Source of the DNA: a virus
Strand: one strand, 5' to 3'
IMG/VR virus record: IMGVR_UViG_3300044712_000083
Location: 1 to 64,000 of that record
DNA: 64,000 nucleotides
Positions 42,202 through 61,470 of the stretch are shown in pieces. The notes under the pieces are model-generated. The model was not told where the DNA came from. It saw only the letters and a list, made by a program, of their open reading frames with translations, and did not search any database. Both the position numbers and the translations under genes were made by a program. Position 1 is the first letter of the stretch; each line of letters opens with the position of its first letter.

Positions 42202-43419
42202 TTAATTTGTAGTTATAAGTGCTCCTCTTGCTTGAAGAGTTGCTTTGTCTATTAATCCTTGTCCTGTTGGAGCTGCGTTTGTTCCACCATCTAGTACTAC
42301 ACTATGACTTGGTCCAAATAACGTTGTACCATTTGTACCATCTAAGCTTACAAGTAATGCAAGTATACCATTTACAGATGCCTCATCTAACGCATTAGAT
42401 GAAAAAACAATTTGAATATCGTCTATTCTTTTAATTGTACCAATTACACCTAGTGATAGTGATGTCAATAATGAATTATATGCTATTGAAATACCGCCAT
42501 AAATATTAACAACTGTTGGTGGAACTGTAATACTTGTTACTAATGTATTTTCTATTATAAATGAATTAATAGCAGTTACATTAGGAAGATCAATTGTTAA
42601 TGTTGAAATCTCATAATTTAGCTCAACACCAAAAGTAGTTACTAGAGGGAAAGATAAAGTTGTTCCTTTATATCCTATAAGTGTTAAATTAGTAACATTA
42701 GGAAAATTAGTTGAGGTTAAATCTGTAATAGGTACATTACTATTATCCATAACTAATCTAACTGTAGAAGCATCTGATGATACTGTTGTGAACAAAGGTG
42801 CATTAGCAATATCAAGATCAAATACTGTATCAGATAAAACAACACTTGTTAATGCTGGTGCATCAGTAATTACAAGAAGTGAGGTATATGATGGTAATGA
42901 TAAAGATTGTAGACTAGTAGCACCTTGAATAATACGATTTTGACCTCCTGCACTAACCAAATTAGGAGCACTAATTGTAGTGAGAGAAGTTAAATTATAA
43001 AATTCAAAATTACTAGCAATTGTAACAACTGATGGTAAATTTATTGTAGTTAAATTTAAATAATCAGTAAGAGAAATACTTCCTAATAAAGTTATTCCTG
43101 GGAATGTAATAGAACTTACGGTTTCTGCAGCACCATTACCAAGACTACCAGCATCTCCAGTAATATATGGAAGTGTACGACTCTGAGCAATTTTAGTTCC
43201 TCCTGTTGAAGCAGAATCTGCTGCAGTAATCTGAGTTAGAATATCTACAGTTAATGTATTGATAGCCCCCACTGTACTAAACGTAACTGTAGGATCCGCA
43301 GCAGGAATACCAGAAGAAATTATAGTGTCAACTACAGAATCAAGACTAAGCTCACCCTTTACAGGTTTGTCAGTGTTCTTCCATAAACCACTCTTAATAT
43401 AAATATTAGACTTAGCCAT
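42202..43419 (-). CDS. LRR / receptor-L-like solenoid fibre protein
   Basis: Repeated LTTI.LP.(L/V)..I units. Confidence 0.7.
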   Translation of the reverse strand: MAKSNIYIKSGLWKNTDKPVKGELSLDSVVDTIISSGIPAADPTVTFSTVGAINTLTVDILTQITAADSASTGGTKIAQSRTLPYITGDAGSLGNGAAETVSSITFPGITLLGSISLTDYLNLTTINLPSVVTIASNFEFYNLTSLTTISAPNLVSAGGQNRIIQGATSLQSLSLPSYTSLLVITDAPALTSVVLSDTVFDLDIANAPLFTTVSSDASTVRLVMDNSNVPITDLTSTNFPNVTNLTLIGYKGTTLSFPLVTTFGVELNYEISTLTIDLPNVTAINSFIIENTLVTSITVPPTVVNIYGGISIAYNSLLTSLSLGVIGTIKRIDDIQIVFSSNALDEASVNGILALLVSLDGTNGTTLFGPSHSVVLDGGTNAAPTGQGLIDKATLQARGALITTN

Positions 43420-43441: not shown

Positions 43442-43449
43442 CAAATATA
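43442..43449 (-). promoter_or_regulatory. Bacteroidota -7 promoter element
   Basis: TATATTTG upstream of 43419, with TTG about 17 nt further upstream. Confidence 0.55.
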
Positions 43450-43528
43450 TGTTACTTTAAATGATATGCAATAGAATACTATAAATTCAGATTAACGTAT
43501 TTGATTACACCATCTCTAATTAAATTAG

Positions 43529-44719
43529 TTATAGATTGATCTTGGTACCGATCATACTCATGAATGTTACTGGTACGCTTGTGTTTGTACTCAAACTAAC
43601 CTTCAATCCACAGTTGAATCTAAACCTTTTACTCAATGCTACATCAAATCCAGAGCCTGTTAATATACCCACATCCTTTGTCAGTGAGTTAGAAACATAG
43701 ATATCTGGAGACATAGATAAGTATTTATTCACTTTGAATGGTCTAGTGTAAAATGCCATCAAGCCATTACCAAACTCTCCTGTGTATGTTAATGCGTAGT
43801 TGAAACCTGTAACTCCTTTACCTATTGGTTTAATAACAGCTGCTGTAGCAAACGCTATTGTGTTACCTTGTAGATAAACTCCTGTTAAACCGTAGTTGAA
43901 AATAGCCTTACCCATCTTTGTGTATCTTGCAGACAGAGCAAACTGGTTAAAGCTACTCCATATCATAGATGTAAGTCCGTAAGACACGTTACCAAGCAGT
44001 GAGGACTGTGATGCCCCCAGTGATATGATAGCACTAAAAGGACTATCAGGTCCGCCAAGCATAGTAAGGTCAGAGCTGTAAACAATAGGATTAAGCTTAG
44101 CAGCAGCTTTGTTGGAAGCCTTAGAAGACTTCTTATCATCACTCTTTTTCTCTTTAGACTCACTTTTACTTTCTGATTTCTCTTCAGATTTAGATGAACT
44201 TTCTTCACTTTTAGACGAACTTTCACTAGAACTACTTGATTCTGAGCTACTTGAGCTTGAAGAATTAGACGAACTATTAGACGAACTAGTAGTAGGTGCA
44301 GGAGTAGAAGCTACTGCTGATGAAGTGGCAGCACTTGTAGCAGATGCTGTAGCACTACTAGTTGCAGCAGCTGTGGCAGCTTGTGTTGCTTGGGCAGTTG
44401 CTTGCTGTGTAGCTTGTTGTGTTGCCTGAGCAACAGCTTGGGTTACAGCCTGAGTAATTATTACGGTTGTAGTTGTAGTTTGTGGACAAGGCGTAGAGTT
44501 AATCATATTAATCCACGCTGTTAAAGCTCCTGTTGTTATGTCATCAGCTGTAACAACTCTAGCTTGTCCTCTATAAACTATAGTAACTGTCCCATTATTT
44601 AGTGGAACAGTTACTGTTAGTACTTGCCCAGAACACGGATCTACATACACTTGTGTTAGAACTTGAGCACTCGCTAAGTTAAAACACAATAACAGTATGA
44701 AGGTCCATATCCATTTCAC
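43529..44719 (-). CDS. signal-peptide protein with S/T/A/Q-rich stalk and C-terminal beta-barrel-like domain
   Basis: Sec signal (ASA-Q), Cys pair, low-complexity linker, alternating amphipathic beta-strands. Confidence 0.7.
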   Translation of the reverse strand: MKWIWTFILLLCFNLASAQVLTQVYVDPCSGQVLTVTVPLNNGTVTIVYRGQARVVTADDITTGALTAWINMINSTPCPQTTTTTVIITQAVTQAVAQATQQATQQATAQATQAATAAATSSATASATSAATSSAVASTPAPTTSSSNSSSNSSSSSSSESSSSSESSSKSEESSSKSEEKSESKSESKEKKSDDKKSSKASNKAAAKLNPIVYSSDLTMLGGPDSPFSAIISLGASQSSLLGNVSYGLTSMIWSSFNQFALSARYTKMGKAIFNYGLTGVYLQGNTIAFATAAVIKPIGKGVTGFNYALTYTGEFGNGLMAFYTRPFKVNKYLSMSPDIYVSNSLTKDVGILTGSGFDVALSKRFRFNCGLKVSLSTNTSVPVTFMSMIGTKINL

Positions 44720-45057
44720 TATTTAGGATCAATCTTAATAGTAGAGTCGATAGCTACCTGAGAACGTTTCAATTGTAACATCTCTTCTTGGTAGTCCCAC
44801 TTAGCTTCAAGAGCTTTGATTTTTTGGCGAGCCTTAATCTTAGCACGCATCTTGAAAATCTTTCCTTCAATCTTGGAAATCTTTACATAACGTGCAGCAG
44901 GATCTTCTTCTGTCAACTTAACAATCTCCAACTTGTGTTCTAAGTTAGAGATACGAGTTTGATACATAGGAATCTTAGCTCCTTGGTAGATTCTGTATGC
45001 AGGATATGCACTCATCACTAGTGCAATAGAACCTGCAATAATTAATTTTTCTAACAT
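44719..45057 (-). CDS. membrane-anchored coiled-coil protein
   Basis: N-terminal TM, basic helix. Confidence 0.65.
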   Translation of the reverse strand: MLEKLIIAGSIALVMSAYPAYRIYQGAKIPMYQTRISNLEHKLEIVKLTEEDPAARYVKISKIEGKIFKMRAKIKARQKIKALEAKWDYQEEMLQLKRSQVAIDSTIKIDPK

Positions 45058-45065
45058 GGTATTGG

Positions 45066-45791
45066 TTATTTAGTGAAAATCTTTTTCTTAATCATGCGTA
45101 CCACAATTTTACTAGTAGCATCTTCAAGTGCTTTCTTAGTCGTTGTACCAATTGTGGATTGATTAAACTTAACATCAGTAAAGTTAGCATCGTTCATTAA
45201 AGTTGCTTCTCTGGTAGTCTGAGCTGTACCCAAACCTGAACCAGTGAAGTACGCTCCAGTCTCAGCGTCTACAAATCTAACTTGTAAACCTAGACGAGTT
45301 ACTACAGTTTGTTTAACTCCGTTCTTCAAAGATACGGATTCATCTTCAGAAACGGAAAAATCATACACCTCAATATATACAAAATATTTTGCAAGTCTGA
45401 TTTTACCTCTTCCATCAAGTTTGTCTTCAGTGATCCCCTTTTGAGATGCCTGAAACTGCTTGACCATTCGGTTCTTGATCTCAGCTTTATCTTCAGTAAA
45501 TATAAATCGGTTGGTTTCTTCTAGGTATTCTACAACTATATTAGTGACACCAAGACCCACTCTTTTGTCTTTGAGTTCTGGATAAGAAGCATAGACATCT
45601 TCATTGATACCAAGAGATAAGAGTTGAATAGGAATGGTTGGGCCGTCATAATCCATCAATGAGTCTATGTTAATCTTCTTTTCAAAGGAAGCTGTGTAGC
45701 TTTCTGTCTTAGTTGTAGCAATCTGACCACTAACTTTGTACGTTAGTGATAAGCTCAATAATAAACTGAATAATAAGCTTAATCTCTTCAT
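45066..45791 (-). CDS. CsgG-family (curli transport/TolB_N-like) protein
   Basis: Signal peptide; GVTNIVVEYL..TNRF.F.E, VYDFSV, LGLQVRFVDAETG....GSG.G, KKALEDA. Confidence 0.7.
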   Translation of the reverse strand: MKRLSLLFSLLLSLSLTYKVSGQIATTKTESYTASFEKKINIDSLMDYDGPTIPIQLLSLGINEDVYASYPELKDKRVGLGVTNIVVEYLEETNRFIFTEDKAEIKNRMVKQFQASQKGITEDKLDGRGKIRLAKYFVYIEVYDFSVSEDESVSLKNGVKQTVVTRLGLQVRFVDAETGAYFTGSGLGTAQTTREATLMNDANFTDVKFNQSTIGTTTKKALEDATSKIVVRMIKKKIFTK

Positions 45792-45819
45792 ATAGTTTTC
45801 TCATTAAGAGGGGGTTTCG

Positions 45820-46131
45820 TTACCACTGTGGCTCCTCTTTCAGAGCCTCTTTTTCTGTTTTCTTTTTAGGAGCAGCCTCCTTTTCTTTAATAATAACTGT
45901 CTTACCAGCAGGAGCTGCTGATTGTTGTTGAGAGTTATTAGTAGTGATATTGATTACAGGAGCAGGTGCTGATACAGCAGCAGGTTGAGCAGCCTCAGCA
46001 GCTTTCTCTTCTCCACCACCAAATAACTGTGAACCTAAATAAGCTCCACCAGCTGTTACAATTGTTCCTACAGTTCCTACTATAGTCTTGACCAATCCTG
46101 ACCAAGTACCATCATTGTGTTCGTCTGACAT
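45820..46131 (-). CDS. small membrane protein with Ala/Pro/Gln linker
   Basis: Gly-rich TM segment, PVINIT, NSQQQ. Confidence 0.65.
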   Translation of the reverse strand: MSDEHNDGTWSGLVKTIVGTVGTIVTAGGAYLGSQLFGGGEEKAAEAAQPAAVSAPAPVINITTNNSQQQSAAPAGKTVIIKEKEAAPKKKTEKEALKEEPQW

Positions 46132-46487
46132 TATCGTTTAATAATTAAAGGTTTTTTAATAGATACACCAGCTACATCAGTTAATGTGATGTCATATAAT
46201 CCATCAGGTAGATCTGCAAGATCGTACACTCTGGTTACAATCTCTTCCTCAGCTGTCAAAGGAAGAGTTTTAGTTGGATCAGATTGACCAAACTCATATA
46301 CTTGTACAGAATACTTTGCTCCTGTAGTTACATTATACATGACTGTAATTTTTGTTCCTTGTGCCATTACACTAAGGATATTTGTTTTATTTGTAGGATT
46401 AGCACCTAGGTTTATCTCAGGTGCAGGCAATTCTACATCAGCACACGCTGTGAGAAACAGCGATGCGATCATTATTAATTTTTTCAT
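46131..46487 (-). CDS. lipoprotein with T9SS-CTD-like Ig fold
   Basis: LTAC lipobox; DLADLPDGLYDITL....KKPLIIK. Confidence 0.65.
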   Translation of the reverse strand: MKKLIMIASLFLTACADVELPAPEINLGANPTNKTNILSVMAQGTKITVMYNVTTGAKYSVQVYEFGQSDPTKTLPLTAEEEIVTRVYDLADLPDGLYDITLTDVAGVSIKKPLIIKR

Positions 46488-46499
46488 TATAGAACTAAG

Positions 46500-48230
46500 T
46501 TAGAAGTTGTTGTATCCTGTAAGTTTAATCTTGTCTGTATTCAGGCTAATAGATAACTGTACACCTTTAGAGTCAGCAGCATCCATGATAGGGCTAACCT
46601 TGATGAATGTATTGATGTCCAATCCATTCTGTAATGCTGTAAAGCGTAACTTGAATGGAATAATATCACCTTCTACAGGAGCATTCAATTGCTGATCTAA
46701 TGCACCAAACTTGATATAACCTGTACCTTTGTTAGCAAACACATACCATTTGTTAGGTAGCTCATTCTTTAACTCTTCAAACTTAATCTTGCTCTCATCA
46801 TAAGAGAACTGGAACTGTAGAGCACCTACCTTGTTTCCATTTGTGGAAACTTTTACAGGGATCTCAATAGAGTTAGATGTCACTACAGTGTTTGTTAAGT
46901 TAACTGTAATAGGAGCTACAGCAATTGTTCTATTAACTACACCTGCACCAGCTTGTGTAACAGATGATGAGTGTGACTTATTGATGTCACCAAACAATAG
47001 ATAACTAATGTTGATAGTCTCAGGATTACCCATTTGAGGTAATGTAGTATATGAATAGAATGTAGGTCCTACAGGAAAGTTTGTAATCCAATCAGCTGGT
47101 GTAGCATTATTGTAAGAAGACTTCTTGAATGTCATCATGCTCATCCAACCATTAGATCCTACAGTGTAACCTGCTGGTAGTACAGTGAGCTGATCTACGT
47201 TTACAACTTGTGCAAACAAACGAGTCAAGTCACCACCATCTAATGCACCACTTCTATTAACATCAGCAGCTTTATATCCCGCACCACTAGTGATAACTGT
47301 GTTCTTGAATGTACCATCTAAGTTCTGTGAAATGAATTCAGACTGAGCAGCTGTGTAGTCAGAGGTTGTAATAGCAGAGTTGTATAAGTTTTGGATATGA
47401 TCCATGTTATACATAGCCAAGATCTTGTACTGTGTACTAGGAGTTAATAAACTATCAATAACATTTACAGTTCCTGTAGCTGTTACATCAAACAAAGGTC
47501 CTTGGTTAGTTGTAGCATTAATGAACGCTACCTTCATTTTAGTAGGATCAATGTTAGGACTCAAGTCAACAGTAGCCTTTACATACTTAGTAGCATCAGG
47601 ATTCTGTGTAATAACTGTAGTTAGAGGAATCTCCATCAATGTAGAACCAGAAGAACCATTCTGATTGAATGACGCAGCAAAGTTCATCTTGATAGGATCC
47701 CACGAGTTACCTACAGCTGTAGGCTTTAATCTAAATCGTAGAACTAATAAACGATCATAGTTACCGTAAGGTAGAGGATTAGGAGATGCCCAGTTTAAAT
47801 ACGCACGAACAATAGTCTTAGGTCCCCCTTGTGTAAATGTGTAGTTAGAATACTGATAGTTAATATTACCATTAGTAGTTGTGTTCTGTTGCGTAGAGTT
47901 CCAATTATAACCAGGATATTGATAGAATGTAAAATCAATTGCGGAACCTGCAGGAAGAACGCCACCATTACCACCAGTGCCAGTGTGGTTAATAGAAATT
48001 AATTCAAACGCAGCATTGTTGTATTCAAAATCAAAGTAGAGTGCACGTGATGTTGTGTTACCATTTCCGTTCATTTGAACAATAACATCAAACTCATCAC
48101 CTTTGTCAATCACACCACCACCAATATCAAATTTAGTAGAATCAGAAGCAAGCTTTAATTTAACATCTTGAGCATAAGAATGTCCAGTTAATAGCGCAAA
48201 AAACTGGACAATTAGGAGGAGTTTTTTCAT
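46500..48230 (-). CDS. secreted protein with cohesin-like and dockerin-like domains
   Basis: Signal peptide; KGDEF.V...FDFEY cohesin-like, AADVNRSGALDGGD EF-hand, GDIN, second cohesin-like IPV.V...ALQFQFSYD. Confidence 0.7.
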   Translation of the reverse strand: MKKLLLIVQFFALLTGHSYAQDVKLKLASDSTKFDIGGGVIDKGDEFDVIVQMNGNGNTTSRALYFDFEYNNAAFELISINHTGTGGNGGVLPAGSAIDFTFYQYPGYNWNSTQQNTTTNGNINYQYSNYTFTQGGPKTIVRAYLNWASPNPLPYGNYDRLLVLRFRLKPTAVGNSWDPIKMNFAASFNQNGSSGSTLMEIPLTTVITQNPDATKYVKATVDLSPNIDPTKMKVAFINATTNQGPLFDVTATGTVNVIDSLLTPSTQYKILAMYNMDHIQNLYNSAITTSDYTAAQSEFISQNLDGTFKNTVITSGAGYKAADVNRSGALDGGDLTRLFAQVVNVDQLTVLPAGYTVGSNGWMSMMTFKKSSYNNATPADWITNFPVGPTFYSYTTLPQMGNPETINISYLLFGDINKSHSSSVTQAGAGVVNRTIAVAPITVNLTNTVVTSNSIEIPVKVSTNGNKVGALQFQFSYDESKIKFEELKNELPNKWYVFANKGTGYIKFGALDQQLNAPVEGDIIPFKLRFTALQNGLDINTFIKVSPIMDAADSKGVQLSISLNTDKIKLTGYNNF

Positions 48231-48745
48231 TATAAGAGTTTATTAATCAGGGTGTTACAAGACTTTTTCAAAGCGGCACTTAGGTTGGTTTGATTAAATT
48301 TGCCTCCATCATCAATGACCAGTGCAGCCATTGATACTTCTTCAGCAGACTCTTCTACTATTACTGTCTTTTTTACTTTATTATCTTCAATCAACTGACC
48401 TCTCATACGTATTACTACAGCATCAGAGTTGCGATGGAATACAGATAAATTAGTTTGCGTTTTGAGAACATCTAAGTACAGTAGTTCAATCTTTATTTCT
48501 TTACTAGCATCATCAGAGATATCATATCCTTCTTCTTGTAAGAACTCCTCCATAATGTTCTTAACTCCAAACGCTAAGTTTCTATTACCAGCCATCTGTC
48601 CCATTACAATTCTATTGTTAACAGGTGCAACCTTAATAGGATTGTCTGGTTTAGTGAAGTGTTTAAATATGTATACAGCCTGGATAGCCAGTGATGATCC
48701 TACAATCATGGATACGATAGCGTAGGTAATAGTAAATAGTTTCAT
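48230..48745 (-). CDS. membrane-anchored CsgG/LptE-like protein
   Basis: N-terminal TM; FGVKNIMEEFL...FNQT..SAALKK parallels the CsgG-like gene. Confidence 0.55.
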   Translation of the reverse strand: MKLFTITYAIVSMIVGSSLAIQAVYIFKHFTKPDNPIKVAPVNNRIVMGQMAGNRNLAFGVKNIMEEFLQEEGYDISDDASKEIKIELLYLDVLKTQTNLSVFHRNSDAVVIRMRGQLIEDNKVKKTVIVEESAEEVSMAALVIDDGGKFNQTNLSAALKKSCNTLINKLL

Positions 48746-48759
48746 GAGATTGGTTGTTT

Positions 48760-48787
48760 AAAAAAAGCAGGATATTATCTACCCTGC
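48760..48787 (-). terminator. intrinsic terminator after the lysis cassette
   Basis: GCAGG...CCTGC followed by T7 on the minus strand. Confidence 0.7.
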
Positions 48788-48906
48788 CCTCTGTATTTCT
48801 TCTTCACTGATTTATCTTTCGGTCCTGCAGACTTAGCATGTTTGCCCTTACGTCTTACACCAAAGATAATCTTCTTAGATTCTGAAGATCCTTTTGCTTT
48901 TGCCAT
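48775..48906 (-). CDS. 43-aa basic peptide, KKYRGQG type (not in ORF track)
   Basis: MAKAKGSSESKKIIFGVRRKGKHAKSAGPKDKSVKKKYRGQGR*, TAATG overlap with the lysin. Confidence 0.7.
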   Translation of the reverse strand: MAKAKGSSESKKIIFGVRRKGKHAKSAGPKDKSVKKKYRGQGR

Positions 48907-49769
48907 TATTTTAGAAGGTTATAGTATTCAATAAAATGTTTCTGTCTGTCAGCTAATCCAATAGTTCCACCGTTAACACGTTTAGTTACAGAAGTAACTG
49001 TAGCGTTATCAGCTCCTTTGTCACAAATAGCCCATAGCTTATTACTGTTAAAGAAGAATGCTGCGGAGGCTAAAGGATATTTAGTTGCTACTAAATCTGG
49101 ATCAGCTAGAATATTCTCAGGAACTGTAGCATCAAACTTAGTGTAGTTGTCTTTACCAGTTAACTGAATATATCCTCTTCCTCTAAATTTATATCCATCT
49201 CCTGAAGATTCAGGCCCATTACCCATACGACTAGCGTAAACACGGTTAGCAATTTTTTCAGGTTTACGTTCATAAGCATTTGCAAGTGCTGCAGTTGGGA
49301 AGTATTTTTTAAATATACCTAATAGTCCTTTGGCAGAATAGTTTAAGTTCTCACGAACAGCTTTCCAGTTACCACTCTCATGTCCACATTGTGACAAGAA
49401 GTGAGCAAGACGTAAGTTGTTTGTAATACCAAAACGTGCAGCTGTATCAGGAATCTGTGCAATAACTGCATCAGGTATATGTCCTTTTAATTTATCTAAT
49501 TTGAATCCAGAGTTGTTAGGGATAACTACAGGTGCTGGTGCTGGTGCAGCTTGCACAGGAGCAGGGGCTGCTTGAGGAAGAGCCTCAATACCAAGCTTAG
49601 CTAATGTAAATGGACCAGCGATACCATCAGCCTGTAAGCCATTAGCTTTTTGCCATGCAATTAAAGCAGCTTCAGTCTTAGGACCAAACTTACCAATAGC
49701 TTCTACACCAAGCTTCTCTTGTAACTTAACAACTAATGGACCTTCGTCACCTCTACGTAATGTTGCCAT
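48906..49769 (-). CDS. endolysin: PG_binding_1 + GH19 catalytic domain
   Basis: LRRGDEG..V..LQ, ADGIAGP.T; AHFLSQCGHES, ENLNYS, FRGRGYIQLTGKDNY, VNGG..GL.DR. Confidence 0.92.
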   Translation of the reverse strand: MATLRRGDEGPLVVKLQEKLGVEAIGKFGPKTEAALIAWQKANGLQADGIAGPFTLAKLGIEALPQAAPAPVQAAPAPAPVVIPNNSGFKLDKLKGHIPDAVIAQIPDTAARFGITNNLRLAHFLSQCGHESGNWKAVRENLNYSAKGLLGIFKKYFPTAALANAYERKPEKIANRVYASRMGNGPESSGDGYKFRGRGYIQLTGKDNYTKFDATVPENILADPDLVATKYPLASAAFFFNSNKLWAICDKGADNATVTSVTKRVNGGTIGLADRQKHFIEYYNLLK

Positions 49770-50001
49770 TGTATTTCTTTTTCTTAGATGGTTTCTTTTT
49801 CTTAGGAGTAACAACCACTGCTTCACCAGCAATCTTTTCTGCAACAGCTTCAGGAATTTCTACAATTGGAGCTTTCTCAGGCTCTACAATTGGTTCTAAT
49901 TTTGATTCATCCACAGCTAAGTTAGCTTTATATGCAGGAGCAATTGGAGTTTGTTCTTTCTTTCCAAAAAGTAAAGAACGTAAAAAGTTTAAAAATTTCA
50001 T
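49753..50001 (-). CDS. small lysis-cassette protein
   Basis: Amphipathic N-terminus, basic tail. Confidence 0.6.
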   Translation of the reverse strand: MKFLNFLRSLLFGKKEQTPIAPAYKANLAVDESKLEPIVEPEKAPIVEIPEAVAEKIAGEAVVVTPKKKKPSKKKKYNGNIT

Positions 50002-50618
50002 TATTTTTTTAGTTTGATTTTAAAATAAGATTGGATACCATAGGTAATCGATCCATCAACATTCACGCCAACTTTTGCACCGATTATCTGATCCTTTTTG
50101 GTTTTGTATAGAAGACCACCTTCTACACCACTGAAAGAAGACATACTTCGCATGTTAATTCCACCCCCTACATAAACCTGTCTTTGAGGTTCTGCATATT
50201 TAGTTATGGTCATTGTTTCCTTAACTATAGGAATCTTGAAGTTATCTTTGGTAGTACGTTTGCCAAGTTTGTTTTCAGACACAGTGTCTGTAACTTGAAT
50301 GTATCCGTGTGTACCAACTTTAATAGAGTCTTTATAAACACGTTTAGATGCATAGTTCTTAACCAATGCATCATATTGTTTCTTCAACCCATTGTAATTT
50401 GTATCAGGTTGATATTTTGTAACCAACACTTCGTGGTTTACAGGAATCTCATGTACAATAGGAACCTCTTTAACAATAGTTTTTTCGTGCACTTCCCATG
50501 TAGTATCGTGTACAACTAATGTATCTGGACCTTTTACACCTTCATGCTTAGAATTGTTATAGAAATATATAACTAATGTGCCAAGAATGATGATGATTGC
50601 TAATGTTAGTTTTTTCAT
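50001..50618 (-). CDS. putative spanin-like membrane protein
   Basis: N-terminal TM, DT-rich stalk, C-terminal beta-strands; inside the lysis cassette. Confidence 0.5.
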   Translation of the reverse strand: MKKLTLAIIIILGTLVIYFYNNSKHEGVKGPDTLVVHDTTWEVHEKTIVKEVPIVHEIPVNHEVLVTKYQPDTNYNGLKKQYDALVKNYASKRVYKDSIKVGTHGYIQVTDTVSENKLGKRTTKDNFKIPIVKETMTITKYAEPQRQVYVGGGINMRSMSSFSGVEGGLLYKTKKDQIIGAKVGVNVDGSITYGIQSYFKIKLKK

Positions 50619-50626
50619 AAGAGATG

Positions 50627-50932
50627 TTATCCCTCTTCGTAAGGGGCTGGTTGTTCATTCTTATCACCAGCTTCTCCTTTTGTTTTCTTTCCCATGACGT
50701 TCTCAACGCCAGAGATACCAAAACAACCAAGAACAATGATGGTTAAAGAATTAAATACGTAATCGTTAAGAACCAATTCTTTTCCATAGTATCCTGTAAC
50801 TAAATCTACAGTAACTACAATAAGCATAAACAAGAATGCGATAGCTCCAATGATGGACTTCTCATTCCAATCGTTATCATCTTTAAAAATGCTGAAGAAA
50901 GATTCTTTAGGATCTTCAATTAAATGTTTCAT
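50627..50932 (-). CDS. putative holin
   Basis: Two TM segments, upstream of the endolysin. Confidence 0.6.
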   Translation of the reverse strand: MKHLIEDPKESFFSIFKDDNDWNEKSIIGAIAFLFMLIVVTVDLVTGYYGKELVLNDYVFNSLTIIVLGCFGISGVENVMGKKTKGEAGDKNEQPAPYEEG

Positions 50933-51206
50933 ATTTTTTAGGGGTTAGGTCATTATCATTCATCACTGCAACAACCTCATGCATATTTACCTGCTTAGGT
51001 AATTTAGATGGAGGCATTGGTACTTTATACGATGTCTTATATACTTCTCTCTCTAGTCCTTCTATACGTACCACTGTACCAGCAGACACTTCAATTAACT
51101 TATCAACCTTAGTATTCAATGTATTTAATTGATAGCTAAACCAACCAAACACTCCTACAACAGCATAGGATAGAGCATTGTCTTTTAAGTCTTGAAAAGA
51201 GGCCAT
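50916..51206 (-). CDS. single-TM coiled-coil protein (holin/antiholin-like)
   Basis: TM followed by LNTKVDKL...RIEGLE coiled coil. Confidence 0.55.
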   Translation of the reverse strand: MASFQDLKDNALSYAVVGVFGWFSYQLNTLNTKVDKLIEVSAGTVVRIEGLEREVYKTSYKVPMPPSKLPKQVNMHEVVAVMNDNDLTPKKYETFN

Positions 51207-51213
51207 AGGTATA

Positions 51214-51327
51214 GAAAAACCATAGAATCCCCAGCCTTTTCAGGAGGGGATCTATGTAGTTTAACAAAAAGAGAGAATGAAAAATCTTAGGAGGATTCCG
51301 AAGAGTTGAAGTTGGTAGGAAACTTCT
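51214..51327 (-). ncRNA. candidate ~110-nt small RNA / lysis-operon leader
   Basis: Own promoter, 5' hairpin GAAGTT/AACTTC, anti-AUG tract and 3' terminator hairpin with U5; no ORF. Confidence 0.55.
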
Positions 51328-51331
51328 GTAG

Positions 51332-51363
51332 CAAATATATGTAAGCTAAATTAAATAAGCAAG
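51332..51363 (-). promoter_or_regulatory. Bacteroidota sigma-A promoter
   Basis: CTTG-N20-TATATTTG. Confidence 0.65.
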
Positions 51364-51842: not shown

Positions 51843-54800
51843 TTAATAATAAGTAAACGAAAGTTGGGAAGCATCTCTCGCAAATATCATAATAGTCGCA
51901 GCAGCTTTAAATCCGCCAGCTCCAGTACCCGTTGTTGCTGTAATTATATATCCGTTTCCATCAGTATTCATTTCTCTTTGATATCCACCAACATTATTAC
52001 CTCCAAACCACTGTAAGTCAAAATATTTATCAACATGAACACCACTTCCATCACTCCATCCTCCAAATTGATATGCTACTCCAGAACCTGTACTTGCTGC
52101 TGAATTTGGAGGATAGTTGTCAAAGTTTAATCCAAAAATAAATCCAGTAAAGTAGTTATTTACCCCTGCGTATATTTTTACAAATTTAGTAGAGCCAACC
52201 TTGTTAACTGAATGGCTAACCATCTTCATACCAGCCACGTTGGTATCTACACCTCTAAATCCAACAGGTCCAAATAAATCTAAACCACCAGTATATCCTG
52301 AGCCATTATTATTCATTCTTACCATCCAATAAGAAGAACTATTTAACATACCAGCATAACCAGGTTCGCTATATAATCCTAATAATGAAGTACCTCCATA
52401 TGCATTTCTTAGCCATAATCTAGGGTATCCACCAGTAGCTCCTATATTCCAATCATTTGAACTTGTTGAATAAAAGTGGTTTGTGGTTGCTTGATTATAT
52501 AGTCCAGTTCCAGAATTGTTATTTCTTAACCATCCATTAGCATAGATATCAAAAAATGTTGGGCTACTACCAGTTGCTAAATTTTGATTAATGGAATATG
52601 CAGTGATATTACTTGCGTTACCAGAAATACTTATTCCCCAAGTCCCTGTAGCACCAGTTCCATTTGTTGGAACATATGTACTATTGTCATAAGAGATAGT
52701 AGTACCCGATGCCTTTACAAATCCTGTACCATTTAAAACAGTTCCAGCAGGTATTGTCCAGCTTCTATCTGCTGATAGATCATAAGCTGTACCATTGATT
52801 GTAAGTGTACGAGAAGTTGGTACTTTATTATTAAATGTAGTCCAGTCAGCAGCAGATAATGCTCCTCTGTTAGATGCACTAGCTGTAGGTACATTTAATG
52901 TAATTACAGGCGTTGTAGTTCCGTTTGCTACAGATGATGATATATCTGTACCTGTAGTTCCAATTGTAAGAGCTGCTACAGATGTAACAGTTCCTGTGTT
53001 AGATGTATAACCGTTAGGGTTAGATGCAGGATAGTAAGCTGTTGTATCTAGTGCAAACGTATTAGGTCCTGTCATCTTTACAAATGATTCAGAAACAAAA
53101 GCTAGTGTTGCTAAAGATGTTAAATTTGCAGAACCTGCCTGTTTACTATTGAAAGTGTTCCAATCAGTTGAACTTAAATAACCATCAGTTGATGTAGTAG
53201 ATTGTGTAATAGAGAATGTTCTATTAGCACTTAGATTACCACCACCTTGTAGAGGAGCTGTAGTGGATATAGTTATAGCTGCATTTGCAGGAGTGTATCC
53301 TAATACACCAGAAATAGATTTATTTACCCACAACTGATTACCTGAAATAGTCTCTAAGAATAATCCTTGACCATCTGTTTTAGGAGCAGTGATTAATACA
53401 TCATGTATTTCATTTAACTCAAAACCATTCTGGATGTTTACAAAGATTTCACCATTGTTAGATTGCTTTCTTGTAACAACACCGATGTAAACCATGTGAG
53501 CAGGAGCTACAGGTTTGTTAGCTAGTCCATATAATAATGTACCATTAGGTCCTAACCATACAGGATCCCCCGCAGCGTTTGCAGCAGATGTATTTAGTCC
53601 TGTAACTAAACCATAAGTTACACATTTAACAATATCATTTAATGCACCACCTGTCTCAAGTAAACCGAATGTTTTAGACGATCCTGCTTCTGTTAAGTTT
53701 GAAGATGCTACAACAATTATATTAGTACCATCTGCGCCAGAAACATACACTGGTGTTCCTTTTGTTAAAGCTGCGCCTAACTTAACTTCATTTTTAACTT
53801 GAGTAGCATAGTTATCAATCCATTGTGTATTGTAGTCTGTAGCATCAATTTTAGCTAAGATTTGTCCAGCAGTACCACCAGTAGGTAATGCACCTCCAGT
53901 AGAAATAGTCCACGTTCTATCTGCTGATAAATCATATGATGTACCATTAATAGTTAATGTGCGAGTTGTTGGTACATATCCAGCTAATGCTGCACTAGTA
54001 ATATAACCAGCAGGGTTTGTAGAATTATATGGTGTATAACCTAACGCACCTGTAATATCTCCTGATGAGAGTGTCACAGCTCCTGTACGCGTATTGAATG
54101 ACGTAACACCACCTTGATATTGAGGAATATTTAATACACCAGTTATATTATCATATGTAGCTGCACCAGATGTTCCAGTTGTTGTAAGAGAGATAGCTGT
54201 ACGAGCACGAGCAGGAGTGTAATATAAGTTAGTTAATCCTTCAGGAATATCAGAAGATGCTAACGATACAGCACCTGTCTGACCATTAACAGATACAACA
54301 GCATCTGTATTATCTACTTGTTGCCAAGCTGTACCATCAAAGATAATCCAGTCACCTAAATTCCAGTCTGAGATACCATCAATAGTTGTAGATCCAGGAA
54401 CAGAAACAATATAATACCATCCTGTTGTACCTACACCAGATGTGATAGTTGGCGTATTTGTAGAAGCATTCCAAGTTCCTTTGTAGATAGAGCCGCCAAT
54501 CAAACCATTGATTTGATTCTGCACTTTACCAAATGCTTCTAGAATGCTATCTGTAGCAACTACAGAACCACCAGTAATATTAATACCTGTCAATACTTTG
54601 CCAGTAACAGCAGAGTTAGATAGAGTGACGTTAGCAGAACCAGGTCCTGATGCAGAAGCTTCTCCTGTTAAATCAGTGATATAATTACCAGCAGCCTGTT
54701 TACTGTTAAACGTATTCCAATCTGTAGAAGAAAGATATCCGTCTGTAGATATACTAGCTTGAGAAATTGTAATATTAGGAGTAGTTCCTCCTGAAGAAGC

Positions 54801-55859
54801 TAATGGAGCAGAAGCTGTAACACCTGTAACAGATCCTGTGTTTGTAGCAGCTACTGTAAAGTTTGGATAGGATCCAGTAACATTAATACCCGTACCAGCA
54901 GCAATAGATACAACTTGATCAGGTGCTGTGTTAGTAATAGTAATGTTAGGAGTTGTAGCAGGATTAGTTACACTAACAGAAATACCTGTACCTGCTGTAG
55001 CAGATACGTTAGTTACACTACCTCCACCAGGAAGTGTCCAAGATCTATCAGCTTGAAGAGTTTGTGTAATACCATTAATAGTGATAGTTCTTGTATTAGG
55101 TACAGGTGTGAATCCTAATGCAGAGTTAATATCAAGACCTGTAACAGGTGTAGCACCTGTAACTAATCCTTTTGCATTAACCTTAAATTTTAAAAAAGTG
55201 TTATTTGTATAAACATTTAGGTTAACATCATTCAATGTTAATGTTGTTGTAGATCCCGTTGATCCACTACCATATACATCTCCTGTGAACGATAGAACAG
55301 AAGACGGTAAGCTAATAGCTGTAGAAGTTACAGCAGTAACTCTACCTTTAGAGTCCACTGTAATACGTGGTACATGTGTACCATCTCCATATATTCCAGG
55401 ATTACTATTTACACTAGCTAACGTAGCAACAGCTGTCCCTGGACCAGATGCAACAACATCTCCAGATAAGTTTGTAATATATGCACCTGCAACTTGATAA
55501 GGTGTAGAGTCTAATGTACCATCTCCTTTTAGAAACTCAGAAGCTGTACCACCAGCTGTAGCAAGTTTAGAACCAATGATTGGACCAACAAACGATAATG
55601 TGAAATTACCACCAATGGTTGTATCTTCAATCAACGAACCACCAAGCTTAACTGGCTGACCAGGAGATAGTTGCACAACACCGTTGGTAAATATATATCC
55701 AACATGAGAATCTCCAAACTTAGCATCTATCTTTTGTAGAGCAGTTTGAATAGAATCATTTTGAGTAATACCAGTGTATGTCAAAGTGTTACCTTCGTAG
55801 AACACGCAGGTAGAGTTCAATATAACTGGGCACATATCAGCCGTGCATAATATATCCAT
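51843..55859 (-). CDS. tail fibre protein
   Basis: G/T/S-rich; repeats RTLTING..YDLSADR.WT (x3) and GYLSSTDWNTFNSKQ (x2); start MDILC. Confidence 0.85.
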   Translation of the reverse strand: MDILCTADMCPVILNSTCVFYEGNTLTYTGITQNDSIQTALQKIDAKFGDSHVGYIFTNGVVQLSPGQPVKLGGSLIEDTTIGGNFTLSFVGPIIGSKLATAGGTASEFLKGDGTLDSTPYQVAGAYITNLSGDVVASGPGTAVATLASVNSNPGIYGDGTHVPRITVDSKGRVTAVTSTAISLPSSVLSFTGDVYGSGSTGSTTTLTLNDVNLNVYTNNTFLKFKVNAKGLVTGATPVTGLDINSALGFTPVPNTRTITINGITQTLQADRSWTLPGGGSVTNVSATAGTGISVSVTNPATTPNITITNTAPDQVVSIAAGTGINVTGSYPNFTVAATNTGSVTGVTASAPLASSGGTTPNITISQASISTDGYLSSTDWNTFNSKQAAGNYITDLTGEASASGPGSANVTLSNSAVTGKVLTGINITGGSVVATDSILEAFGKVQNQINGLIGGSIYKGTWNASTNTPTITSGVGTTGWYYIVSVPGSTTIDGISDWNLGDWIIFDGTAWQQVDNTDAVVSVNGQTGAVSLASSDIPEGLTNLYYTPARARTAISLTTTGTSGAATYDNITGVLNIPQYQGGVTSFNTRTGAVTLSSGDITGALGYTPYNSTNPAGYITSAALAGYVPTTRTLTINGTSYDLSADRTWTISTGGALPTGGTAGQILAKIDATDYNTQWIDNYATQVKNEVKLGAALTKGTPVYVSGADGTNIIVVASSNLTEAGSSKTFGLLETGGALNDIVKCVTYGLVTGLNTSAANAAGDPVWLGPNGTLLYGLANKPVAPAHMVYIGVVTRKQSNNGEIFVNIQNGFELNEIHDVLITAPKTDGQGLFLETISGNQLWVNKSISGVLGYTPANAAITISTTAPLQGGGNLSANRTFSITQSTTSTDGYLSSTDWNTFNSKQAGSANLTSLATLAFVSESFVKMTGPNTFALDTTAYYPASNPNGYTSNTGTVTSVAALTIGTTGTDISSSVANGTTTPVITLNVPTASASNRGALSAADWTTFNNKVPTSRTLTINGTAYDLSADRSWTIPAGTVLNGTGFVKASGTTISYDNSTYVPTNGTGATGTWGISISGNASNITAYSINQNLATGSSPTFFDIYANGWLRNNNSGTGLYNQATTNHFYSTSSNDWNIGATGGYPRLWLRNAYGGTSLLGLYSEPGYAGMLNSSSYWMVRMNNNGSGYTGGLDLFGPVGFRGVDTNVAGMKMVSHSVNKVGSTKFVKIYAGVNNYFTGFIFGLNFDNYPPNSAASTGSGVAYQFGGWSDGSGVHVDKYFDLQWFGGNNVGGYQREMNTDGNGYIITATTGTGAGGFKAAATIMIFARDASQLSFTYY

Positions 55860-55905
55860 GGTATGCAATTAAATTTTAATATAAAAATACGGAATTGTGT
55901 TGAGT

Positions 55906-55935
55906 TGTAGGATAGTTATAGAAAACTATCCTACA
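55906..55935. promoter_or_regulatory. 12-bp inverted repeat between the cargo and fibre genes
   Basis: TGTAGGATAGTT-N6-AACTATCCTACA without a U-tract. Confidence 0.5.
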
Positions 55936-55943
55936 TAATATAG

Positions 55944-58900
55944 CTATCGCATATTGTTCTCTGCCTGAATTGTAATATCAAATTCTTTAGCAAAGTCATT
56001 ACTAAATGATGCACCTAAGTTAATCACTGGTTTGAAACCTGGAGTTAACTTCATCAATGTTTTAATAGGGTAAACTTTCTTTCTAACTTCTTCAGGAGTT
56101 GTTTCTGCATCAAAATCTTGTCCTGTAATTTCTTGACCTAATTGTCCAGCAAACTTAAATACGTCTGCAAACAATCCTAATGCAGGAAGTTTATCTCCAG
56201 AAAGAATACGCTCAATCTCCATAGGGTTATAGAAGAATGAAAGCTCATCTGTAAACTTGTTCAGCATACGTTCTGTGTAACGCTTAGCGTTCTTCGTAGC
56301 TTTATCATCATCATCGTCTGGAGCAATCAAACCAAATCCACCTGTGAACAAGATTGTCATCAATGTAAATAATATACCAAGCTCTTTAATCTGATTACGA
56401 AGGTTGTTTACAATCATATCAGTGAAATCAGCTTTGGACATATTCATCTCTGTTCCTGTACGATCTTTCCACTCTTTCTTATACTTAAGGAATAGCTCAT
56501 CAATGATCGCCATACCCTTCTCATTAGCAGTTAGAATGTTAGTGATGTTAGAGGATAAGTCACGAACACTAGTTACCCATACAGTTGTTAATAATCTAAG
56601 ACGACCTATATCATATCTTTCTCCAGTTACTTTTCCTGTTACAGGATCAATACGTACAGAGAAGTCATCACTTGTTTTCTTGAACTCTGAGAAACGTACA
56701 TCAACAAGACGAGGAATCCAGTTTTGGAATACCATCGCACTTCTTGCCCAGATGTTCATACCTGCTTTATTAATATCACCGTTAGATAAGTTACCCGTGA
56801 TACTTCTAGCAATGTTTCTTGATAGATTAGTTAGACGTTGTGTCTCATCTAAGTTATTCAAGTCTAATCCAGGGATAACAAGCTTACCGTTTTCTAAACG
56901 TTTAGTAACCCACATGGACTTTGTCTTCTTAAGCTCCTCAATCTCTTCATTAATTTTTTTCTTACTTTCTCTGTATAGAGCAGAAGAGTCAGCTCTGTTC
57001 TGATACTTAGCACTCACATACTGTTTGATATTAACAATGTTACCATCAACAACCATGGAGTTCTTCATCAATGTCAAGAACACAGCTTTATCAATAAACT
57101 CTTCGGGCTTTCTCATGAAGAACATTAACATGTCTCCAAGGTTAGCTCTAGTAAGTGCTGAGATACCTGCCTCCTCATATAGCTTCTTAAACGGACTATC
57201 TTTAAGTGGCATGAATGTTTCCATCAATTGAACGAATGTTTCTGCACTTTCTTCATTTTGAAATATACCACTCATTAAATCAGCCTCACTACTTAAGAAC
57301 TCTCTACTTTTAAAGTATGTACCAGCTAATGCAGACATCTGAATGTTTGCACCAAATAAGTTGGCAAGACCAGAGAACGGATCAAGACCTAATGCTTTCA
57401 ACTGATACCACTTATTGATCTTCTCCATTGTCTTAACTGCAGACAAAGGTGTAGGATTCTCTTTGTACACTTCTCTACCAGCAGCCTTGTTAATCAATCG
57501 CTTAATGATATTCATAGGATTACCTATAGCAGTATCTGCATCAGATAAAGGATATCTTTGCTGTAACACTAATGCTTTGTAGAAGTTATCATACGTCTCA
57601 GTGTTTTCTTTATTCTCTGTAGTAATAACTACTGGTGTACCATCTTCTTTAGTAACAACGTCACCAAGTCTAGTTGTTTGTAAGTGTCCTTTGAACTCTT
57701 CAATTGTACTAAGTAGTTTCAACTGACCAGACACTTCTTTCAAATACTTGTACTTCTGTACGTGTTGAATATATAACACCAAGTTTGCAAAGATGTCCTC
57801 ACTAATTTGTGAAAAGTCTGTAGTATCACCAGCTTCTTTCTTTGTAAAGTCTTTGGTGTAGTATTTAGGAATACCGTTCTCAATCTGTTGTGTAAATTGG
57901 TTAATCTCACCAAGTCCAACATCTTTAGATGTAATTCTTAAATCATCTCCAATCTTACCTAAGTTCTCATAGAAATTAGCAATAGCAGAACCCACACCAT
58001 CAAATGCAACCTCCTCAGCCATAGTCTTAGCAACAAATGGTAAGAAGGTTTTCTTAATCATGTTACTAATGTATCCTTCTTCTGCAGCAATATTGTTTAC
58101 TTTCTCAATAAAGTTATAGAGCTTTAATAATCCTGGATCCTGCATAATTCTTTTGTATTCTTCTGAATACCATTTCTCAAGAGGATGACGCTTAACAATA
58201 TAGTTATTCCAACCATCAAAGTCTACACGGTCAATATCATATTTACGTTTCTGTTGTTCAATTAAGAACTTTCTACGTTTGATAGTCTCATCGTCATTAC
58301 CTGGATTGTTTCTTTCTATAGATTTTATTTGTCTATCAAGAACTTCAGCAGCCTCTTTCTTATAAGCTTCTACATCAATATTATTTAGTAACCAGTTCTT
58401 ATCTCCACCTTCTGGATCATTAGCATTCTTATCAACAGCCTCACGGAATTCTTTAGTATAAACATATACTAAGTTATTCATTCTCTTACCCTCATCATCT
58501 TTTTGATAGATGCTTCTAATCTTCTCCATGACGTTACCACCTTCCATCAGTTCTTTTCTGATTTCCAATAGTTCATTAACTAAAGCAATGCCATCTTTAG
58601 AAGCTTTATTTTCTGCAGCTTGTGTAACCTTAAATAAGATTTGTAAAGACTTCGAACCTAAGTCAGATACTCCACGGAACCAAGAGCTAATACCTTTGAT
58701 TACAGCTTCTGGATCCATCAATCCACCAACTAAGTTTCTCCATCCAATATACTTATCACCAAACCCGCCTTTACCTATTAATAACTTCTTAACACTTTGT
58801 TGAGTTCTAGCAATAGCACTTGCTTCTAATGTAAGTTCTTCTAATACACGTTTTCTTTCTGCAACTTGTTTCTTCTCCTCTTTAGTCTTAGCACTTTCTG

Positions 58901-61469: not shown

Positions 61470-61470
61470 A

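Follow-up and report, generated by a model that had tools for sequence, protein, structure and literature searches.

Seven exported proteins encoded beside the lysis genes of a probable Bacteroidota phage may form an envelope complex

What would a phage do with a block of seven genes whose products all carry signals for export from the cytoplasm of the infected cell? To our knowledge the ways in which Bacteroidota phages open or modify the envelope of their hosts are very little known, and classical spanins can seldom be recognised in them. The question is raised by IMGVR_UViG_3300044712_000083, a virus record of 114,191 bp that is complete and bears direct terminal repeats, of which the first 64 kb (hereafter the window) were analysed. 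Seven minus-strand open reading frames (ORFs; g1-g7, together the cassette) occupy positions 43529-48745 of the window, with large structural genes upstream (51843-63993) and fibre-like genes downstream, namely a leucine-rich repeat (LRR) protein at 42202-43419 and the MAIPSKQ paralogues. The best-supported statement about the cassette is a structural one: it appears to encode a Sec-exported set, co-expressed with lysis genes, that populates the inner membrane, the periplasm, the outer membrane and probably the surface. We propose, at a probability of roughly 0.4, that these products form a phage-built envelope complex that displays a binding protein and remodels or masks the cell surface around lysis. 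The cassette is made up as follows:

g1, 48230-48745, minus strand: 171 aa; N-terminal hydrophobic anchor and small alpha/beta domain
g2, 46500-48230, minus strand: 576 aa; signal peptide, cohesin-like head, dockerin-type calcium loop and C-terminal cohesin
g3, 46131-46487, minus strand: 118 aa; lipoprotein with a beta-sandwich resembling the T9SS (type IX secretion system) type A sorting domain
g4, 45820-46131, minus strand: 103 aa; acidic N-terminus, one membrane helix and Ala/Pro/Gln-rich tail
g5, 45066-45791, minus strand: 241 aa; signal peptide and a domain of the LptE/PelC/CsgG fold
g6, 44719-45057, minus strand: 112 aa; N-terminal membrane helix and charged, heptad-like tail
g7, 43529-44719, minus strand: 396 aa; signal peptide, N-terminal domain, stalk and 12-strand beta-barrel

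A first-pass annotation of this DNA had described coupled genes that each carry a signal peptide, a lipobox or a transmembrane segment, and had proposed that their products are targeted to the host envelope. Both claims hold for all seven ORFs at the positions above. Neighbouring ORFs overlap by 1 nt at three junctions and are separated by 8-28 nt at the rest. Read from the sequence by eye, the export signals consist of a signal-peptidase-I type leader followed by Gln in g2, g5 and g7, a lipobox in g3, and one N-terminal hydrophobic helix in each of g1, g4 and g6. A leader that ends before Gln follows the Bacteroidetes Q-rule (PMC5837995), and the same arrangement recurs in homologues of g5 (16/17), g2 (24/29) and g7 (39/53). 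With export signals on all seven proteins, the reading of the cassette as a set of virion proteins was dropped.

A gene-neighbourhood survey dispelled the doubt, raised with the first-pass annotation, that these genes might not keep company elsewhere. Relatives of g5 were found in 319 IMG/VR stretches, and across the 77 phage loci with distinct g5 DNA co-occurrence is wide: g7 is also present in 73 of them, and the order g1-g2-g3-g4-g5-(g6)-g7 on one strand is kept in nearly all. The grouping is far from chance. The only isolate that holds the core genes is Flavobacterium phage vB_FspM_immuto (hereafter immuto), whose gp015-gp018 are the cohesin protein, g4 (gp016), g5 and g7 in a row; a nucleotide search of isolate phages matched the endolysin alone, and a protein search matched the immuto phages alone. 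Among 185,579 species genomes only 6 loci were found, all on metagenome-assembled genome (MAG) contigs that resemble binned phage DNA and that are labelled Sediminibacterium, Flavobacterium or Bacteroidetes. The cassette is phage-specific, and the same survey excludes its recent copying from a host operon. Taken together, the isolate relative, the MAG labels and the Q-rule leaders indicate a Bacteroidota host, and the relatives point to hosts of the Flavobacterium type or at least within the Bacteroidota. Searches with PADLOC defence models gave no real match, and no description of the cassette was found in the literature.

The first-pass annotation had called g2 a cohesin-dockerin protein, of which the cohesin part stands: the C-terminal cohesin (PF00963, residues 453-557) scores 33.4 bits against a cut-off of 24.1 (E 6e-8). 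The N-terminal cohesin-like head falls below the Pfam cut-off (18.8 bits, E 0.002). The dockerin part is weak and half-sized, since Dockerin_1 (PF00404) reaches 17.2 bits against a cut-off of 22.9 (E 0.006), matches through its second repeat only (profile positions 24-52), and finds a first repeat that has no calcium loop. The residues of the one calcium loop (D323-x-N325...D331..D334) are invariant or nearly so in 29 homologues, and comparison of the g2 family profile with the PDB returned a ScaB cohesin (E 0.001) and a ScaH dockerin (E 0.022), each at the right position. In divergent lineages the N-terminal head is a C-type lectin (locus L079, 23.0 bits against a cut-off of 22.6), and gp013 of immuto is annotated with a C-type lectin as well. 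Because the head is swapped, cohesin-like in one lineage and C-type lectin in another, on a constant connector, these alignments suggest that g2 is a ligand-binding, probably glycan-binding, subunit.

The lectin-headed homologues (L079:4388-6190, plus strand; L044:2976-4775, plus strand) carry an EPN-type motif. Their lineage has a second cohesin-type gene upstream, lacks g3, and holds gm3, a holin-like gene of the lysis cassette described below, between g4 and g5.

The lipoprotein assignment of g3 was borne out, its lipobox (LTAC) having a Cys that is invariant in 26 homologues. Acidic residues at positions +3 and +5 after the lipidated Cys (C-A-D-V-E) partly resemble the export signal of Bacteroidota surface lipoproteins, which was defined with a consecutive D/E pair (PMC5080379). 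A PHROG search with the seven cassette proteins gave just one match, of g3 residues 1-60 to the Cor exclusion lipoprotein (E 5.4e-4); a Cor-type role was discounted, the weak match being confined to the signal-peptide region. The more informative relationship is to the T9SS type A sorting domain (TIGR04183/PF18962). Five g2 homologues tested end in an extra 80-residue domain that scores above the cut-offs of both TIGR04183 (E 2e-9 to 2.3e-5) and PF18962, and is thus a genuine copy. Within the g3 family, 5/26 members match TIGR04183 (best E 2.5e-5), and in hhalign g3 aligns with the fused sorting domains of g2 homologues at a probability of 81% (E 1.2e-5). By eye, the g3 of the window keeps the start, middle and end motifs of the sorting domain (NPTN, GLYD and KKPLIIK). 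Therefore g3 is predicted to be homologous to this domain, and differs from the known system in that here the domain is a separate lipoprotein gene and not the C-terminus of a cargo protein. We have not found this arrangement described.

A search with a profile of the fused sorting domains together with the g3 profile gave a sharply partitioned count. At 101 loci with a full-size g2, 88 have only a separate g3, 10 have only the fused domain, 3 have neither and none has both. This has the look of a textbook fission/fusion pattern, in which g3 would be the sorting domain of g2 turned into a separate gene with its own lipoprotein signal; from this mutual exclusion it follows that g2 and g3 very probably act together. 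Moreover, the fused forms of g2 are predicted T9SS cargo, such that g2 would reach the cell surface at least in those lineages, and surface display of g2 gains support from the sorting domain that its relatives carry. No other T9SS cargo was found in the phage genome.

The product of g7 had been described as a stalked beta-barrel, and the AlphaFold2 (AF2) model agrees: 12 strands at residues 212-395 form a barrel, with a predicted local distance difference test score (pLDDT) of about 80, behind a Ser/Thr-rich stalk. The N-terminal domain (about 60 aa) has 4 strands, 2 helices and two conserved Cys residues. The stalk spans about 130 aa (residues about 83-207), is composed in blocks of Ala/Thr/Gln repeats, poly-Ser and Ser-Glu-Lys repeats, and may be a glycosylated or length-tuned spacer. 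VIA exhaustive structure comparison placed the translocator of NalP first (Z 23.2, root mean square deviation (rmsd) 2.1, 213 residues aligned), followed by EstA (20.9), AIDA-I (20.7), KdgM (20.5) and FapF (19.1); Foldseek returned KdgM (9.4e-7) and FapF (1.6e-6), and Hbp and the 12-strand porin NanC are further structural matches. Beyond low-complexity noise g7 matches no Pfam family, Autotransporter included.

In its signal peptide, N-terminal domain, linker and C-terminal 12-strand barrel, g7 resembles the type Va autotransporters (NalP 1uyo, EstA 3kvn, AIDA-I 4mee, Hbp 3aeh), and its Ala/Thr/Gln helix (residues about 83-116) aligns with the NalP pore helix. However, it differs from them in lacking a family match, in the small size of its N-terminal domain, and in that this helix is of low confidence (pLDDT 51-61) and far from strand 1, about 90 disordered residues intervening. 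KdgM and NanC match the barrel alone equally well. The N-terminal domain may face outward as in autotransporters or lie in the periplasm as in FapF (5o65). The length of g7 varies widely, from 364 to 487 aa in IMG/VR loci and up to 567 aa among metagenome proteins.

The domain that g5 carries is related to that of g1. The motifs that the first-pass annotation had claimed to be common to the two proteins (GVTNIVVEYL/GVKNIMEEFL and FNQSTIG...KKA/FNQTNLS..LKK) are real and form two colinear segments in BLASTP (E 0.008 and 0.037). In hhalign the two family profiles align colinearly over 116 columns (E 5.4e-4, at a probability of only 30%), with a 32-residue gap in g1 opposite an invariant helical insert of g5. 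On these profiles g1 is best described as a distant paralogue of g5. Many g1 homologues have a cleavable leader and Gln in place of the anchor; the family is small (172 representative clusters among 1.84 billion proteins), and g1 matches Pfam Lipoprotein_16/YajG below the cut-off (E 9.2e-5). The AF2 model of g5 (mean pLDDT 62.5) has long strands at residues 136-196. Its top Foldseek matches are CsgG chains (4uv2/6l7a, E 1.6e-7, probability 1.0, TM-score 0.38-0.47), and VIA comparison lists Cj1090c (Z 12.3), CsgG 6lqh (Z 11.6, rmsd 3.7, 162 aligned), PelC (Z 10.0-10.3), FlgT and LptE (Z 9.3). The protein-language-model neighbours of g5 are CsgG/LpoB clusters (0.93-0.94), and PDB sequence searches with the g5 and g1 families gave nothing useful. 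Judged by its model, g5 deserves the label 'CsgG-like' as far as the LptE/PelC/CsgG/LpoB fold is concerned.

The most conserved cassette gene is g5, with a mean pairwise identity of 72% compared with 38-46% for the others; one cassette protein is 58-96% identical across lineages. Because this identity stands so far above that of the other cassette genes, it suggests that g5 contacts a conserved partner or host component. Among known systems, PelC-PelB and LptE-LptD (9h80, 5t0z, 5ixm), in which a lipoprotein of the LptE fold cooperates with an outer-membrane barrel, resemble the cassette in that an LptE-fold protein, g5, is encoded directly before a barrel gene, g7, whose start lies no more than 60 nt from the g5 end in 46/73 loci. 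They differ in that g5 is unlipidated, the 12-strand barrel of g7 is too narrow for an LptD-type plug, and the cassette is without accompanying polysaccharide or lipopolysaccharide (LPS) pathway genes.

Two observations on fused proteins touch g5. Bacteria at loci L114-L122 encode lipoproteins of 452-481 aa that join a CsgG domain (PF03783, E 8e-67) to a C-terminal outer-membrane protein (OMP) beta-barrel (PF13505, E 2.6e-9); such fusions occur in 9/61 genomes sampled from the same family as the Flavobacterium MAG holding locus L109. The pairing parallels the phage g5-g7 gene pair, and profile comparison found no significant homology to the phage proteins. A metagenome contig of 5,095 bp encodes the only longer protein found, P0248 (438 aa), with a C-terminal fragment of a TonB-dependent receptor barrel and a full g5 homologue (57% identity). 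A g5-g7 fusion was rejected here, there being no similarity to g7, and the protein may be a real fusion or a gene-calling merger of two neighbouring genes.

The remaining two proteins are small and membrane-anchored. In an alignment of 24 homologues the motifs PVINI and KTVIIKE of the g4 tail are conserved, and its C-terminal Trp is invariant. The g6 tail is charged and heptad-like by eye, and is probably a coiled coil, and the topology is i-spanin-like; tblastn confines g6 to the sub-clade of the window (28 loci).

The position of the cassette bears on when it would be expressed. Directly upstream, on the same strand, are the following features:

51332-51362, minus strand: promoter-like motif upstream of gm4
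48775-51362, minus strand: lysis cassette upstream of g1 and apparently in one unit with it: gm4, gm3, gm2, gm1, the endolysin, the 43-aa basic ORF
50001-50618, minus strand: gm2, 205 aa; N-terminal membrane anchor and beta-rich, OMP-like C-terminus; no family match
48906-49844, minus strand: endolysin; Pfam PG_binding_1 and Glyco_hydro_19 (GH19); PHROG 181, E 2.9e-64
48775-48906, minus strand: 43-aa, very basic ORF; its ATG shares bases with the stop codon of the endolysin (TAATG)
48762-48792, minus strand: hairpin with U-run between the basic ORF and g1; -15.8 kcal/mol, z -3.65, 0/200 shuffles as stable

Within this unit gm4 has one membrane helix and gm3 has two, being holin-like, and gm2, always found next to the holin-like gene and the lysin, is a candidate envelope-spanning single-chain spanin equivalent. 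The basic ORF was located by tblastn at 61 related loci; wherever its position was inspected, it came after the lysin. Its C-terminus carries the conserved motif KK-x-YRGQGR, and it could be a lysis accessory, for example a cationic peptide that disrupts the outer membrane, though it does not look amphipathic. A PHROG search of gm1, gm3, gm4 and the basic ORF gave nothing usable, the only match of the basic ORF having E 0.084. As only about 20 nt remain between the hairpin and the g1 start, transcription of g1-g7 has to pass through it. Exactly two copies of the 11-mer ACATATATTTG are present in the window, at 51332-51342 and 43442-43452 (minus strand), both copies being intergenic, containing a Bacteroidota -7-like element and lying 20-25 nt after a TTG. 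The copies bracket the lysis and cassette unit, one lying upstream of gm4 and the other immediately past g7 and upstream of the LRR fibre gene, and the motif is probably a promoter type shared by the lysis-cassette unit and the LRR gene unit. The host-type promoter TTG-N17-23-TAnnTTTG was also considered and is not enriched in the window (6 compared with 9.8 in shuffles); the promoter reading draws on the identical 11-mer pair only. In other lineages the lysis genes lie upstream of, downstream of or inside the module, on the same strand; in 6 loci gm3 separates g5 from g3 or g4, and in 6 loci the lysin separates g7 from g5. In immuto another endolysin, the second one annotated (gp236), is located roughly 6 kb downstream from the module.

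Sister contigs found by a search with gm2 show that the cassette can be absent. The first, IMGVR_UViG_3300042454_000021 (112.9 kb; loci L130/L131), has the lysis cassette of the window, the basic ORF, g6 and the fibre genes, but has neither g7 nor the LRR gene. Of g1, 30 residues are left as a remnant at L130:11669-11758, and at the exact place of g1-g5 (L130:11769-13139, plus strand) are four small ORFs of 133, 94, 118 and 141 aa. By type these are a membrane helix with a coiled coil (twice), a lipoprotein with a coiled coil, and a signal peptide with a coiled coil and C-terminal membrane helix; the lipoprotein weakly matches Rz-like spanin PHROGs (E 1.4e-3), and none of the four has a homologue in the genome of the window. 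The second, L148 (114 kb), has a holin-like gene, gm2, a different lysin of M15 type and a 45-aa basic ORF, followed directly by fibre genes, the cassette and the spanin-like set both being absent from the lysis-fibre junction. Altogether 14 gm2-bearing contigs (L142-L155, L148 among them) are without the cassette, none lying within 10 kb in the 13 others. With the cassette missing from L130, L148 and these 13, it is a dispensable accessory in a variable slot between lysis and fibre genes. By comparison gm2 and the basic ORF stay with the lysin more constantly: they accompany it in most loci and, in L148, even where the lysin is different. The link to the lysis cassette, the derivation of g3 from a T9SS sorting domain and the absence of the cassette from sister phages go beyond the first-pass annotation.

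How, then, might the proteins work? We envisage that the cassette would be transcribed together with the lysis genes and its products exported via the Sec, lipoprotein and outer-membrane insertion pathways of the host, to assemble, in the infected Bacteroidota cell, across periplasm and outer membrane. There g7 would form a 12-strand outer-membrane barrel bearing a small disulfide-type domain on a long stalk, and g5, aided by its smaller paralogue g1, would be a soluble or ring-forming partner on the periplasmic face of the outer membrane and no pore itself. The inner-membrane tethers of the assembly would be g4 and g6. The working subunit would be g2, a binding protein that combines an exchangeable head, one calcium loop of dockerin type and a cohesin; g3, a lipidated copy of the sorting domain, would keep it at the outer membrane, and in lineages with the fused domain the host T9SS would send g2 to the cell surface. 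The likeliest purpose would be to re-dress or mask the cell surface around lysis, which would exclude other phages or stop progeny from sticking to debris. The data above show the folds, the export signals, the synteny, the mutual exclusion of g3 and the fused domain, the tie to lysis genes and the dispensability. That the proteins form one complex, that they are exposed at the surface and that they serve this purpose we infer, the single complex from synteny and one fission/fusion pattern. A fuller version, namely a previously undescribed, Bacteroidota-specific, multi-layer envelope apparatus in which a station of g7 and g5/g1 with g3 displays lectin- or cohesin-headed g2 on the dying cell, independently of the host T9SS or in competition with it, for receptor masking, progeny protection or outer-membrane opening, we consider unlikely as a whole.

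Several points weigh against surface remodelling or masking by such a complex. The g2 of the window has no T9SS sorting domain, which leaves any crossing of the outer membrane unexplained; the g3 of the window does not match TIGR04183, the family threshold not being reached; and in its C-A-D-V-E the acidic residues are not adjacent, as they are in the export signal as defined. The AF2 models of g5 and g7 are of moderate confidence (mean pLDDT 62.5 and 65.7). In immuto the module sits among replication genes, which suggests a different timing there. Finally, the association with lysis genes and the spanin-like replacement in a sister phage fit a role in lysis at least as naturally as masking.

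A role in lysis is the most serious alternative, if a somewhat unlikely one. Here an envelope-spanning complex of the anchors g1, g4 and g6 with g5, g3 and g7 would weaken or rupture the outer membrane after the endolysin has acted, as a Bacteroidota-specific functional equivalent of spanins. The linkage to lysis genes is close, with the cassette in the same apparent transcription unit as a holin-like gene, the endolysin and the basic ORF, and with lysis genes interleaved with module genes in several lineages. Moreover, L130 exchanges g1-g5 for four small ORFs at the same junction, one of them weakly Rz-like and none shared with the genome of the window. The likeness to two-component spanins (lambda Rz/Rz1; PMC6139136) thus extends to the position after the endolysin, to the pairing of an inner-membrane protein of i-spanin topology (g6) with a lipoprotein (g3), and to the spanin-like replacement. 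However, no module protein matches any spanin or lysis PHROG, g3 is a beta-sandwich and not a short proline-rich lipoprotein, and there are five further, larger proteins. Relatives with neither cassette nor spanin-like genes nearby (L148 and the 13 other gm2 contigs) indicate that lysis needs neither, and the replication-gene setting in immuto also speaks against this role. A 576-aa g2 with swappable lectin or cohesin heads and, in relatives, a T9SS domain has no obvious job in membrane rupture, and for the outer-membrane step gm2 and the 43-aa basic ORF are more promising.

The proposal of surface remodelling must also be set against secretion. The first-pass annotation had described two CsgG-like proteins and suggested aggregation, receptor masking or exclusion as possible purposes of a phage-built outer-membrane complex or surface polymer. 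From the two proteins one could build an outer-membrane secretion ring of g5/g1 (type VIII-like) that, with g7, exports a g2 polymer and anchors it through cohesin-dockerin self-assembly. We regard this as improbable. In its favour, CsgG chains are the best Foldseek match of g5 and give Z 11.6 over 162 residues, the amyloid exporter FapF is among the best g7 matches, and g2 has two cohesin-like domains and one dockerin-like loop; bacterial lipoproteins do fuse CsgG to an OMP beta-barrel, and csgG/csgF clusters are known in phages (PMC7029224). With CsgG (PF03783; 4uv2, 4uv3, 6lqh, 6l7a) g5 has in common the alpha/beta fold, the order of secondary structure, a helix at the position of the second CsgG helix, and the status of an envelope protein encoded beside other exported proteins. 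What stands of the CsgG description is the fold of g5 and, by profile, the distant paralogy of g1; neither protein is a detectable member of the CsgG family. PF03783 gave no match to g1 or g5 at E<=1, nor did a six-frame search of the whole genome at E<=10, while control genomes gave matches. In an hhalign comparison with nine CsgG proteins, taken from the bacterial family to which the L109-containing Flavobacterium MAG belongs, neither the g5 match (E 0.11) nor the g1 match (E 0.12) was significant, and the short aligned pieces fall at equivalent helices. A lipobox-like motif is present in 0/17 homologues of g5 and 1/29 of g1, compared with L-x-x-C-G in all of the bacterial CsgG proteins compared.

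At the positions of the CsgG membrane hairpins, in a manual alignment on conserved anchors, g5 has segments of about 14 and 18 residues against about 21 and 26 in CsgG, and these segments are polar, with invariant Asp150 and Glu151. The partners are missing as well: CsgF (PF10614) and the curlin repeat (PF07012) were not found in the whole 114-kb genome, as the first-pass annotation had said of the curlin repeat, and there is no CsgE-like gene; the dockerin of g2, half-sized and below the Pfam cut-off, does not help. Moreover, the non-pore proteins PelC, LptE and Cj1090c fit g5 as well as CsgG does. Given the short polar segments at the hairpin positions, a CsgG-like secretion pore formed by g5/g1 is unlikely, and because of these segments, the missing lipid anchor and partner genes and the lack of a family match, we take g5 for a periplasmic protein, soluble or assembled into a ring, and not for a pore.

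In Flavobacterium many mutants resistant to phages have their lesions in gliding or T9SS genes, and g3 is essentially a lipid-anchored sorting domain whose relatives' g2 carries genuine ones, yet the idea that a cargo-less g3 and the cassette jam or redirect the host T9SS or gliding, and so remove T9SS-dependent receptor adhesins, is very improbable, since the either/or pattern of g3 and the fused domain says that g3 serves g2, no module protein resembled a T9SS component in the searches made, and g5, g7 and g1 would be left unexplained.

For the preferred reading, an envelope complex that remodels or masks the surface, the closest published precedents are two. Pelagimyophages carry partial curli clusters (csgG, csgF) of unknown function (PMC7029224), and a phage-encoded T9SS cargo has been reported once, in the cryoconite phage 'Cryophage' (PMC7468147). 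The pelagimyophage clusters are similar to the cassette in that exported outer-membrane proteins, a CsgG-type protein among them, are encoded by a phage and are widespread in one phage group. However, their genes can be told from sequence to be CsgG and CsgF and are similar to proteobacterial operons, whereas the cassette is without CsgF and without CsgG at the sequence level; it differs further in its partners (a cohesin/lectin protein, a sorting-domain lipoprotein and a 12-strand barrel), in its Bacteroidota hosts and in its tie to lysis genes. From the cryoconite phage, too, it differs in composition, in the sorting-domain lipoprotein and in that tie.

Few conserved blocks of exported proteins are as widespread as the cassette in uncultured phages of the Flavobacterium type from fresh water and the sea. 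A T9SS sorting domain that lives as a separate lipoprotein could give insight into the recognition of sorting domains. The core genes are present in an isolate, immuto, whose host is Flavobacterium sp. LMO8, and the function of the cassette is therefore directly testable. If receptor masking or outer-membrane opening proved true, the cassette would represent a new mechanism of phage exclusion or lysis.

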